64,000 nt of DNA, taken from the NCBI RefSeq assembly GCF_016026235.1, contig NZ_CP065613.1. The stretch is one strand, 5' to 3'. The position numbers and the translations under genes were made by a program. Numbering within the stretch: the stretch's first letter is position 1; each line of letters starts with the position of its first letter. This document shows positions 4,419 to 60,412 of the stretch, one piece after another. Below the pieces are notes generated by a model, which was not told the DNA's origin, searched no databases, and worked only from the letters and a program-made list of their open reading frames with translations. The stretch comes from Escherichia coli. GTDB lineage: Bacteria; Pseudomonadota; Gammaproteobacteria; Enterobacterales; Enterobacteriaceae.

Positions 4419-4442
4419 TGCCAGCTTGTTAAAAATGCGTAA

Positions 4443-4468
4443 AAAAGCACCTTTTTAGGTGCTTTTTT
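4443..4468 (+). terminator. Rho-independent terminator downstream of cysK
   Basis: Perfect 10-bp stem aaaagcacct / aggtgctttt with tttt loop, followed by T-run. Confidence 0.7.
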
Positions 4469-39403: not shown

Positions 39404-39857
39404 CTGCTTCCTCCTGTTTGGTGAGAGATGCCAGATAATCCACCAGTTGCTGCACGCTTTGCGGGTCGTGGCTGTTTAGCTCGAAAATCGGCTCTTCGAA
39501 GCCCGTCTCAAGCAATAACTTTCGCGTTGCGGCGACGTCAGCATCTGGCATGTCCGTTTTACTGATGACGGCGATTTGCCGTTTGCTGACGCCAATATCC
39601 AGCAACCCGGCAGGCAACCGACTTTCCGGGTCATTCGCGCCGTGGACATAGATCAGCATGTCCACATCCTGTAGCGTGGTAATTAAGGCGTGATACCAGC
39701 GGGGATGGCTAAAATATTCACCCGGCGTATCAATATCGCCCTTATCATTAAATTCCACGGCCTGTGTTTTTCTGGCGAGGGTATAATTCCCCTGCAACGC
39801 ATTAAATAACGTTGTTTTCCCTGCCCCGACGGTACCCACAAACGCAATTCGTTTCAT
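39378..39857 (-). CDS. eutP: Ethanolamine utilisation protein EutP (P-loop GTPase-like)
   Basis: 159-aa ORF MKRIAFVGTVGAGKTTLFNALQGNYTLARKTQAVEFND... Walker A GAGKTT. Confidence 0.94.
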   Translation of the reverse strand: MKRIAFVGTVGAGKTTLFNALQGNYTLARKTQAVEFNDKGDIDTPGEYFSHPRWYHALITTLQDVDMLIYVHGANDPESRLPAGLLDIGVSKRQIAVISKTDMPDADVAATRKLLLETGFEEPIFELNSHDPQSVQQLVDYLASLTKQEEAGEKTHHSE

Positions 39858-39869
39858 GAATGCCTCGTA

Positions 39870-40205
39870 TTAACTTTTGGTCATTTCACAAAGCGTATAA
39901 TTTAATAAGCGACCTAAACCGCTGACGGTTTGTGATAACGCTTCTTCTACTGCGCCCACCGAGCCATAAATCACCAATGCACCACTGAAGCGGTCGAGAA
40001 AACCGATATGCACATCAGCGGCTTTCAATGCTAAATCACCGGCGATCATCGCCGTTTCGCCAGGAGTTAGCGTCATAATGCCAATTGCGCCCGCATCCGG
40101 AACGCCGATTTTCTTCGCCAGTTCCTCGCCGGGATGCGCGATGAGATGCGCCAGCGTGACCTGTTTGCCGGGCACAAATTCCTGAATGATGCGTTCTTTA
40201 TCCAT
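39870..40205 (-). CDS. eutS: Microcompartment shell protein EutS
   Basis: ORF 39870..40277; start taken at [32 protein letters not shown] (111 aa). Confidence 0.93.
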
Positions 40206-40330
40206 GAGTCGCCGCCTGTGAAAAACTTTCGTGTATCGTGACAATTTTTCGTCAGAGTAAATAACAAAATTCGGCAAGCGCGTTTAAAAGGTGAGGTAGA
40301 TCACTAAGAATGGAGAGATATTTACTGTTA
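40206..40330 (-). promoter_or_regulatory. Main eut operon promoter region upstream of eutS (EutR-dependent in enterics)
   Basis: AT-rich non-coding sequence immediately 5' of eutS on the minus strand; positional. Confidence 0.3.
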
Positions 40331-40450
40331 TGAATAAACTTTCATATGCGACGCATGAATATAAATAAAATAATATCGAGATATTTTATATTGCTTTTTT
40401 TATTATTCGTAAACTCAGTAATAAGCTTTACTAATATATTGCAGCTGGAC

Positions 40451-40478
40451 CGCTTACCCTGAATATTCAGGGTAAGCG
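40451..40478 (-). terminator. Perfect 13-bp hairpin downstream of maeB (probable terminator, no clear U-tract)
   Basis: cgcttaccctgaa-ta-ttcagggtaagcg, 17 nt past the maeB stop. Confidence 0.4.
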
Positions 40479-40495
40479 TGAGAGTTAAAAAAGAA

Positions 40496-42775
40496 TTACA
40501 GCGGTTGGGTTTGCGCTTCAACCACGGCCAGCGCCACCATGTTGACGATACGACGCACCGATGCGATCGGCGTTAACACGTGAACCGGTTTCGCCACGCC
40601 CATCAGCACCGGACCGACAGTCACACCTTCTGAGCTGGAAACGCGCAGTAAGTTGTAACTAATGCGGGCAGCTTCCATGTTCGGCATCACCAGAATATTG
40701 GCAGAACCTTTCAAAGGGCTGTCCGGCATACGGTCGTTGCGAATCGCTTCCACCAGCGCTGCATCGCCGTGCATTTCACCATCAATCATCAGTTCTGGTG
40801 CACGTTCCCTGACCAGTTCCAGCGCCTGACGCATTTTGCTCGACGACGGGCAGTCAGAAGAACCAAAGTTGGAGTGCGACAACAAAGCAACGCGCGGCTC
40901 AATACCAAAACGACGGACAGTTTCTGCCGCCATCAAGGTGATCTCCGCCAGCTCTTCTGCGTCTGGTTCGTCATTGACGTAGGTATCGGCAATAAAGGTG
41001 TTACCACTCGGCAGCAGCAGCGCGTTCATTGCACCTGCGGTGTGAACGCCATCGCGATAACCAAAGACATTTTTCACCACGCTAAAATGTTCATGATAAT
41101 CACCCACCGTACCGCAGATCATTGCATCGGCTTCCCCACGCTGAACCATGATCGCGCCGATCACTGTCGGGTTACTGATCAGCGCCCGCTGCGCCTGTTC
41201 CTGAGTGACGCCGCGACGCTTCATGATCTGGAAGTATTCGGTCCAGTACTCTTTAAAGCGCGGATCGGATTCGTTATTGACGATCTCAAAATCAACGCCC
41301 GCTTTGATCTGCAAGCCCAGTTTCTGAATGCGCATTTCGATCACGTTCGGACGACCGATAAGGATCGGTTTCGCCAGTCCCAGCGTTACCAGTTCCTGAG
41401 TGGCATGCAGAACGCGCGCCTCTTCCCCTTCCGGCAGAACTACGCGCTTCGGCGCTTTGCGAGCCTGGGAGAAAATCGGCTTCATAAACAGGTTGGTTTT
41501 GTAAACGAACTCAGTCAGCTTGTCGATGTAGACGTCGAAATCAGCAATCGGACGCGTCGCCACGCCCGACTCCATCGCCGCTTTCGCGACCGCAGGAGCG
41601 ATCTTAACGATCAAGCGCGGATCAAACGGTTTTGGAATGATGTATTCCGGACCAAAGCTCAGATCCTGATCGCCATACGCTGAAGCCACCACTTCGCTCT
41701 GTTCCGCATGGGCCAGTTCTGCAATCGCGCGTACCGCCGCCAGTTTCATCTCTTCGTTGATGGCGGTTGCGCCAACGTCCAGCGCGCCACGGAAGATGAA
41801 CGGGAAGCAAAGGACGTTGTTGACCTGGTTTGGATAGTCAGAACGACCGGTGCAGATGATGGCATCCGGACGCACTTCTTTCGCCAGCGGCGGCAGAATT
41901 TCCGGTTCCGGGTTCGCCAGCGCCAGGATCATTGGTGCCCGAGCCATTTTCTTCACCATTTCCTGGGTCAGCACTTTCGGGCCGGAACAGCCGAGGAAAA
42001 TATCTGCGCCTTCAATCACATCATCGAGGGTACGTTTGCCGTCATCCACTACCGCATATGCGGCTTTGGTTTCCGCCATGTTTGGCTCACGGCCTTGATA
42101 GATAACGCCTTTTGAATCGCAAACCACGATGTTATGTTTTTGCAGACCCAGCGCTACCAGCAGGTTCATACAGGCGATTGCTGCAGCACCCGCGCCGGAA
42201 ACCACCATACGCACATCAGAGATGTTTTTCTCCACCACGCGCAAGCCGTTGAGGATGGCGGCAGTGCTGATAATTGCCGTGCCGTGCTGATCGTCGTGGA
42301 ATACCGGAATATTCATCCGCTCGCGCAGTTTCTGTTCAATATAGAAACATTCTGGCGCTTTAATGTCTTCGAGGTTGATGCCGCCGAAGGTCGGTTCGAG
42401 CGCAGCGACGACTTCAATAAATTTGTCCGGGTCGAGTTCATCAACTTCAATGTCAAATACATCAATTCCGGCGAATTTCTTAAACAGAACGCCCTTGCCT
42501 TCCATCACCGGTTTGCCCGCCAGCGCGCCAATGTTGCCTAACCCCAGCACCGCCGTACCGTTAGAGATCACCGCCACCAGGTTACCGCGCGCGGTATATT
42601 TGTAGGCTTTTAACGGGTCTTTTTCGATTTCAAGACAAGGTGCGGCAACGCCTGGTGAGTAGGCCAGCGCCAGATCGCGCTGCGTTGCCAGAGGCTTGGT
42701 TGGAGAAACCTGGATTTTCCCTGGAACTGGAAATTCATGGAAATCAAGTGCACTTTGTTTTAACTGGTCATCCAT
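40496..42775 (-). CDS. maeB: NADP-dependent malic enzyme (malic enzyme plus PTA-like domain)
   Basis: 759-aa [50 protein letters not shown]... Confidence 0.97.
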
Positions 42776-58063: not shown

Positions 58064-58070
58064 GCAATAA

Positions 58071-58101
58071 AAAAGGCGACATGCTAATGTGTCGCCTTTT
58101 T
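58071..58101 (+). terminator. Rho-independent terminator of acrD
   Basis: Perfect 11-bp stem aaaaggcgaca / tgtcgcctttt with 8-nt loop, followed by T-run, 8 nt past the acrD stop. Confidence 0.75.
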
Positions 58102-60332: not shown

Positions 60333-60412
60333 GTAGGCCGGATAAGGCGTTAACGCCGCATCCGGCAATGGTGAACGATGCCTGATGCGACGCTCACGCG
60401 TCTTATCAGGCC
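60333..60412. repeat. BIME: two REP palindromic units between ypfN and ypfH
   Basis: gtaggccggataaggcgttaacgccgcatccggca and gatgcctgatgcgacgctcacgcgtcttatcaggcc. Confidence 0.75.

Follow-up and report, generated by a model that had tools for sequence, protein, structure and literature searches.

Two described kinds of 3'-end element and one family of extragenic repeats come closest to the hairpin that follows maeB in Escherichia coli. Intrinsic terminators combine a stem of about 5-14 bp and a loop of 3-8 nt, placed soon after the stop codon, with a U-rich stretch of 7-9 nt directly after the stem. The main text of Dar & Sorek 2018 describes stable stem-loops with few U's and no upstream A-tract as characteristic of transcripts that depend on Rho for termination and are then trimmed by PNPase and RNase II, and proposes that terminator types switch in evolution through the loss or gain of U's (PMC6061677). 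REP/BIME elements, which stabilise 3' ends, occur in many copies that match a consensus. We propose, with slightly better than even confidence, that the maeB stem-loop ends the transcript as a terminator hairpin whose U-tract has decayed, and that it also shields the mRNA 3' end. This is an element of a well-described kind, with its K-12 counterpart already present in published 3'-end tables, and its worth lies mainly in annotation, since it sets the maeB 3' UTR (~53 nt in K-12) and the boundary between maeB and eut.

Transcription of maeB is constitutive, and the eut operon, comprising 17 genes controlled by EutR, is tightly induced. Both lie on the minus strand of the 64-kb stretch of E. coli DNA analysed here (the window), in which positions 40200-40560 match E. 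coli FDAARGOS_943 at 100% identity and can be found in 5,423 of 5,426 complete genomes. The features of the locus, in the order of transcription, are as follows.

40496..42775, minus strand: maeB coding sequence (NADP-dependent malic enzyme), TAA stop at 40498-40496; from the open reading frame list and the RefSeq annotation of FDAARGOS_943 and K-12.
40479..40495, minus strand: U-rich spacer of 17 nt between stop and hairpin, UUCUUUUUUAACUCUCA; from the sequence, with no A-tract before the stem.
40451..40478, minus strand: maeB 3'-end hairpin, a perfect 28-nt palindrome; from the sequence, the RNA fold and conservation in Escherichia with wobbles on the sense strand only.
40442..40450, minus strand: tail GUCCAGCUG, where a U-tract would be expected; from the sequence, the allele survey and the K-12 termini by homology.
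40313..40441, minus strand: Escherichia-specific AT-rich spacer; from composition and cross-genus alignment.
40206..40312, minus strand: block conserved across genera, presumably the eut promoter/leader judging by its conservation and position, CATTCTTAGTGATCTACCTCACCTTTTAAAC...TTGCCGAATTTTGTTATTTACTC... to the eutS ATG; from alignment with Citrobacter, Klebsiella, Pseudocitrobacter and Yokenella.
39870..40205, minus strand: eutS, gene 1 of the eut operon; from the open reading frame list and the RefSeq annotation of FDAARGOS_943 and K-12.

The eutS start codon is thus reached about 245 nt downstream of the hairpin. An earlier note on this DNA had placed the hairpin upstream of the eutS promoter, and this agrees with its position about 130 nt upstream of the conserved block that presumably holds the promoter. 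Proteomics of strain W3110 found MaeB abundance to be independent of eut induction (PMC11334477), in agreement with separate maeB and eut transcription units.

The palindrome CGCTTACCCTGAATATTCAGGGTAAGCG occupies exactly 40451-40478 on the minus-strand, maeB side, and the distance of 17 nt from the maeB stop given in the earlier note is correct (40479-40495). Because its 'ta' centre is self-complementary, the DNA forms a perfect 14+14 palindrome of 28 nt. A hairpin loop of 2 nt is sterically impossible; in the maeB-sense RNA, 40467-40478 pairs with 40451-40462 in a 12-bp stem closed by the 4-nt loop AUAU (40463-40466), so that the perfect symmetry and high stability first described hold, but the 13-bp hairpin with a ta loop does not. 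Local RNA folding yields an energy of about -20 to -22 kcal/mol (centroid -22; z = -4.0 against shuffles), and the stem length, loop size and distance from the stop codon fall within the range of intrinsic terminators. The palindrome is the longest perfect inverted repeat of the window and has a single match in its 64 kb at up to 3 mismatches, with shuffles giving 0. A search for perfect hairpins whose arms are no shorter than 12 bp gave 3 sites in the 64 kb; 200 dinucleotide shuffles gave 0.015 on average. The other two, at 4441-4468 and 58070-58101, are classical A-tract/stem/T-tract terminators of the bidirectional type (AAAAAAGCACCTTTTTAGGTGCTTTTTT and AAAAAAGGCGACATGCTAATGTGTCGCCTTTTT), which leaves the maeB hairpin as the only one of the three without a T-run.

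On the maeB-sense side the tail GUCCAGCUGCAAUAU holds 2 U in its first 9 nt, and GUCCAGCUG is therefore not the U-rich stretch of an intrinsic terminator; on the plus, antisense strand the tail UGAGAGUUAAAAAAG likewise has no U-tract. We rejected a bidirectional terminator on the grounds that neither side carries a U-tract and that natural variants weaken the antisense hairpin. A consensus promoter/terminator scan did not call the maeB hairpin, and the same scan returned no promoter-like site in the maeB-eutS intergenic region. Membership of a known RNA family was also rejected, as an Rfam search of 39800-41000 with E up to 10 gave noise at chance level, well below gathering scores (mir-3167, 21.5 bits where the gathering score is 86, E = 0.6).

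The hairpin is present in nearly all E. coli as a single copy and is kept in three other Escherichia lineages. Comparison of K-12 and six further E. coli with these three lineages indicates that the stem is far better conserved than the flanking DNA, and all internal stem changes produce U·G or G·U pairs in the maeB-sense RNA and A·C mismatches in the antisense RNA. They comprise C7>U in E. coli HCM-25C-3, an A>G in the right arm common to E. coli MSB1_4I, Escherichia sp. MOD1-EC7003 and E. whittamii, C8>U with A12>G in MOD1-EC7003, and A13>G in E. whittamii. Standard pairs fill 94.9% of cells in the sense direction and 88.5% in the antisense direction; across pairs 2-11 the sense strand is 100% paired, and the antisense strand has five broken cells. 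Energies of the variant hairpins range from -16.3 to -20.4 kcal/mol in the sense direction, and the antisense forms are as weak as -7.5 (sense versus antisense: -16.3 vs -7.5, -16.9 vs -12.8, -18.6 vs -14.1 and -19.6 vs -15.6 kcal/mol). This bias argues for selection on the structure of the maeB-sense RNA and not on the DNA palindrome, within a small covariation sample of six distinct sequences and about five independent events, with no double compensatory change.

The same comparison bears on whether the palindrome is a DNA site bound by a dimeric regulator of eut or maeB, a role also raised in the earlier note. In this strain, the perfect 28-bp dyad symmetry, the intergenic location and the position upstream of eutS are what such an operator would present. 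Its defining properties, a conserved dyad with conserved spacing inside a promoter, are nonetheless lacking: the symmetry is broken at 1-3 positions in HCM-25C-3, MSB1_4I, MOD1-EC7003 and E. whittamii, and the palindrome stands outside the conserved eut block and is absent from genera that share it. Neither the length nor the sequence of the loop is constant (TA, TTA, TAA or a centre rewritten as GTTTATTC), and the gained base or rewritten centre alters half-site spacing in a way that a dimeric DNA-binding site would not tolerate. In MSB1_4I, where a 2-kb insertion parts maeB from eutS, it is maeB that keeps the hairpin and tail. The spacing of the palindrome is not one known for Cra, ArgR or LexA boxes. 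We consider an operator very improbable, and the suggestion of a protein-binding palindrome is best set aside.

The MSB1_4I locus itself (NZ_LR898874.1 1508300-1511500; our loci L087/L089) carries the ~2-kb insert directly after the hairpin tail, with a family-4 glycosyltransferase gene on the opposite strand. A copy of IS1A lies between eutS and eutP, and the eut operon of this strain is therefore probably disrupted.

Published 3'-end mapping places the end of the maeB transcript at this hairpin in K-12 MG1655. Supplementary Data 2-4 of PMC10687069, in tables that appear to be RNAtag-seq-based, list a very sharp 'Primary' maeB 3' terminus on the minus strand with a peak at 2576046-2576055, a dominant position of 2576046 or 2576048, a signal of 0.99-1.0, a rank of 34 and a 3' UTR of 53 nt. 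The fold listed there for this terminus is the same hairpin, at -19.5 kcal/mol with a maximum U-run of 3 (PMC10687069). Checked on the K-12 sequence, the palindrome spans 2576054-2576081 and its last paired base is 2576055, so that the ends in these tables correspond to tails of 7-9 nt, AGUUUAG(CU), at a U|G step; 2576048 and 2576046 align to window positions 40445 and 40443. The terminus 7-9 nt after the stem was thus seen on the K-12 allele, AGUUUAGCU, which is the allele that the published tables cover. The earlier note had looked to 3'-end mapping as a check on the hairpin, and the outcome is favourable: in these tables K-12 transcripts end at the hairpin, and the palindrome is conserved within Escherichia.

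We re-derived the offsets of the fold sequences in PMC10687069 from the row for the thrL attenuator, as legend and rows disagree. The legend of Supplementary Data 3 gives -40..+10 for the fold sequence and -20..+10 for the U-tract, and the thrL row corresponds to about -50..+1 and -10..+20. This mismatch matters for anyone turning those tables into coordinates.

Behind one conserved stem, the tail varies widely. The alleles that we found are listed here.

E. whittamii: tail ATTTTTATATT (AUUUUUAUAUU).
Escherichia sp. MOD1-EC7003: tail GTTTTATTG.
E. coli MSB1_4I: tail GTTTTGCTG.
E. coli, about 470-590 genomes: tail GTTTTCCTG (GUUUUCCUG type).
E. coli, about 1,865 + 1,184 genomes: tail GTTTAGCTG (GUUUAGCUG type), with or without the K-12 terminal G>A.
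One other Escherichia lineage: tail GTTAAGTCC.
This window, 117 of ~5,409 complete genomes, about 2%: tail GTCCAGCTG (GUCCAGCUG).

Alleles other than that of the window contain 4-6 U, and genuine U-tracts directly follow the same stem in E. whittamii (ATTTTTATATT), MOD1-EC7003 (GTTTTATTG) and some E. coli (GTTTTCCTG or GTTTTGCTG). The absence of a U-run on the maeB side, reported in the earlier note, is accurate for this strain but describes a minority allele, most E. coli having GUUUAGCUG or GUUUUCCUG. From its sequence the window allele looks to be derived from GTTTAG by TT>CC at window positions 40447-40448 (K-12 2576050-2576051). Among its carriers are strains of O157:H16 and O169:H41 and one labelled O157:H7; the count of 117 comes from blastn, as the megablast '>=99%' band gave 530, a number inflated by truncated alignments. 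Nearest-neighbour sums for the last 9-nt RNA:DNA hybrid, which are rough and use the parameters of Sugimoto 1995, weaken from -13.9 kcal/mol in the window through -9.3 in K-12 and -4.5 in E. whittamii to -2.7 at the canonical Citrobacter terminator. The T-weight, calculated in the style of d'Aubenton-Carafa, is 0.58 for the window tail, 0.94 for K-12, 2.65 for E. whittamii and about 5 for canonical Citrobacter; across the canonical maeB terminators of other genera it is 4.6-5.3. The K-12 tail is itself a poor U-tract.

To compare the site across genera, we fetched 80 Enterobacteriaceae loci with the MaeB C-terminus as query and inspected the DNA beyond each stop codon. Citrobacter and the Klebsiella oxytoca group have a canonical terminator 19-20 nt after the stop, GGCGCGGG..CCCGCGCC followed by 9 nt that include 7-8 T. 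At 14-17 nt from the stop, Pseudocitrobacter and Yokenella have comparable terminators, likewise with a GC stem and a T-run but differing in sequence. In each of the four genera the terminator borders immediately on the cross-genus block CATTCTTAGTGATCYACYTCACCTTTTAAA...TTGCCGAATTTTGTTATTTACTC, which extends to the eutS ATG. The spacer between stop and terminator in other genera, TAATTTCACTTTAATTAATT, is roughly alignable with UUCUUUUUUAACUCUCA. The arizonae and diarizonae subspecies of Salmonella have a canonical terminator after maeB followed by unrelated AT-rich DNA and not by the conserved block. Enterobacter, Leclercia, Kluyvera and others show REP-like or other palindromes after maeB, or a different downstream gene. 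The CGCTTACCC...GGGTAAGCG hairpin is confined to Escherichia, where it is followed by an AT-rich spacer of ~75-135 nt and then by the same conserved block. Conservation in other enterics, proposed as a check in the earlier note, therefore holds across Escherichia and gives way in other genera to a different terminator or palindrome at that position.

The AT-rich spacer (40313-40441; 67-90% A+T in 30-nt windows and ~76% over the first 120 nt) is absent in the other genera. It holds no annotated feature in the K-12 annotation and no promoter-like match in the consensus scan; that H-NS binds it is a guess. One Escherichia lineage (L004) has a shorter version.

These comparisons raise the alternative that the hairpin is a relic without function, left by inserted DNA (a decayed REP-like pair, for instance) that arrived together with the AT-rich spacer and replaced the ancestral terminator. 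Both hairpin and spacer are indeed Escherichia-specific, and four Enterobacter/Leclercia loci (L033, L039, L048 and L074) carry an inverted REP-like pair, ..GCGTTCGCTTACCCGACCTAC..GTAGGCCGGATAAGCGCAGCGCC.., in the first 90 nt after the maeB stop. The inner parts of this pair, CGCTTACCC and GG(A/G)TAAGCG, equal the outer 9 bp of both Escherichia hairpin arms. A REP-derived origin may be weakly indicated by this similarity, for which we roughly estimate a chance probability of ~0.06, and such an origin would not exclude function. We regard a functionless relic as improbable, given that the element is single-copy in E. coli, that its stem is better conserved than its flanks and varies only by sense-strand wobbles, and that K-12 transcripts end at it in the tables of PMC10687069. 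Membership of a REP or MITE family was rejected on copy number: megablast finds one locus per genome and the window holds one match, in place of the many consensus-matching copies that mark REP/BIME elements. The two 'places' per genome returned by blastn are the palindrome matching itself on both strands.

Several other repeats came to light in the course of this comparison. A typical E. coli REP, GCCGGATAAGGCGTTAACGCCGCATCCGGC, lies at window positions 60337-60366 and is unlike the maeB hairpin. Many Enterobacter, Leclercia, Lelliottia and Pluralibacter genomes (L031, L032, L044, L047, L050, L060, L064, L072, L078, L079 and others) have, after maeB, palindromic CCCTCTCCC...GGGAGAGGG repeats in tandem, whose very stable hairpins reach -50 kcal/mol and which look from their sequence like a different extragenic repeat family. 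The MaeB encoded by one record labelled Chryseobacterium sp. 18061 (L065, CACSKA010000009.1) is of the Enterobacteriaceae type, with 87% identity across 248 aa at the C-terminus, and the repeats downstream are Enterobacter-like; this assembly is probably contaminated or mislabelled.

In the mechanism that we favour, RNA polymerase would pass the maeB stop codon and, 17 nt further on, the nascent RNA would fold into the 12-bp hairpin (about -20 kcal/mol). Beyond the stem, most E. coli have a U stretch that is short and weak (GUUUAGCU or GUUUUCCU), and the K-12 ends, which lie at the U|G step and leave 7-9 nt beyond the stem, could arise by one of two routes. In the first, the hairpin would bring about weak intrinsic termination with help from the residual U's and from pausing at that U|G step. 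This route is favoured by the U-tracts of relatives, the canonical terminators of other genera at the same site and the 7-9 nt tail, and equally by the low C content just downstream and the closeness of translated eutS. In the second, polymerases that read on would stop downstream, most obviously through Rho, and 3' exonucleases would trim the RNA back to the hairpin; the tail length fits this route as well. Ending at the hairpin would keep the EutR-controlled eut operon free of constitutive transcription from maeB. A non-canonical terminator insulating eut, as the earlier note put it, gains support for its role from the K-12 3' end, from conservation in Escherichia and from the terminators of other genera, release at the hairpin itself being putative.

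In the window strain, the TT>CC change leaves GUCCAGCU, which gives a much more stable RNA:DNA hybrid, and hairpin-driven release should therefore be inefficient. More polymerases would be expected to read on and to stop downstream, by Rho or at the AT-rich spacer, after which 3' exonucleases would trim back to the hairpin and leave it, as before, to fix the maeB mRNA end and keep it stable. With the residual U's gone, insulation of eut may be leakier. For this allele, we thus expect weak intrinsic release, a hairpin acting mainly as an exonuclease barrier and possibly more leakage into eut.

Several observations weigh against termination at the hairpin, namely the 2 U in 9, the stable hybrid, the scan that did not call the hairpin, the signature of the type described by Dar & Sorek and a mild C>G stretch 80-160 nt downstream of the stem (C 20%, G 10%, C/G = 2.0). 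One alternative is a purely protective hairpin, in which diffuse Rho termination downstream, perhaps aided by the AT-rich spacer, would be followed by trimming by PNPase and RNase II; no E. coli allele would terminate at it, and its sole effect would be to set and stabilise the 3' end seen at steady state. The stable stem, low U content, missing upstream A-tract and precise steady-state end match the class set out in the main text of PMC6061677, the K-12 tail has just 3 consecutive U's, the C>G stretch could serve such a mode, and the ~2% of genomes with the window allele show that the U's can be dispensed with. Against it, genuine U-tracts follow this stem in related Escherichia, and canonical terminators occupy the site in other genera. 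The stretch of 120 nt directly downstream of the stem is also C-poor (C 12%, C/G = 1.0), with no obvious Rho-loading (rut) site, and the distance to translated eutS leaves little room for Rho to act ahead of the operon. We consider this purely protective role possible but tentative. A literature search that took in PMC6061677 (main text), PMC7815308, PMC12207403, PMC12259150 and PMC6131387 brought up no gene-level Rho-dependence or full-length transcript data for maeB in the portions of these sources that it covered.

Termination at a hairpin with a decayed U-tract also leads to a further proposal, that one stem followed by AUUUUUAUAUU, GUUUUAUUG, GUUUUCCUG, GUUUAGCUG and GUCCAGCUG forms a natural allelic series of a terminator-type switch. 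We think this rather unlikely. If it were true, the window allele would measurably raise maeB read-through into eut or shift maeB to Rho dependence, and basal expression of the ethanolamine utilisation genes would be lineage-specific. Independently of that outcome, the tails behind one conserved stem are a convenient test set for the amount of U-tract that an E. coli terminator needs. They could equally be used to test drift between intrinsic and Rho-dependent modes, as proposed in the main text of Dar & Sorek (PMC6061677).

Set beside the known systems, the maeB hairpin resembles intrinsic terminators in its stable stem-loop, in the K-12 end 7-9 nt after the stem and in the U-tract of its Escherichia relatives. 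The same site, 17-20 nt after the maeB stop and ahead of the eut block, holds the maeB terminator in Citrobacter and Klebsiella oxytoca (GGCGCGGGTTTCTCCCGCGCC + TTTTTATTT). The Escherichia stem is, however, unrelated to it in sequence and only ~50% GC, and differs from intrinsic terminators in general by a U-tract that is weak in most E. coli and missing here (2 U in 9) and by the absence of an upstream A-tract. With REP/BIME 3' stabilisers it shares the nature of an extragenic palindrome after a stop codon and a 9-nt arm similarity to the Enterobacter-type REP found after maeB; unlike them it is single-copy and lies off the consensus of E. coli REPs, and its hairpin is short and perfect where the REP stem is imperfect. 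Its first 120 nt downstream are not C-rich, unlike the class of Dar & Sorek, and Rho dependence of maeB is only putative. Like the protective stem-loops of that class, as characterised in the main text of PMC6061677, the maeB hairpin is stable, marks a precise 3' end, has few U's and lacks an A-tract, and its allele series resembles the switching between terminator types proposed there.
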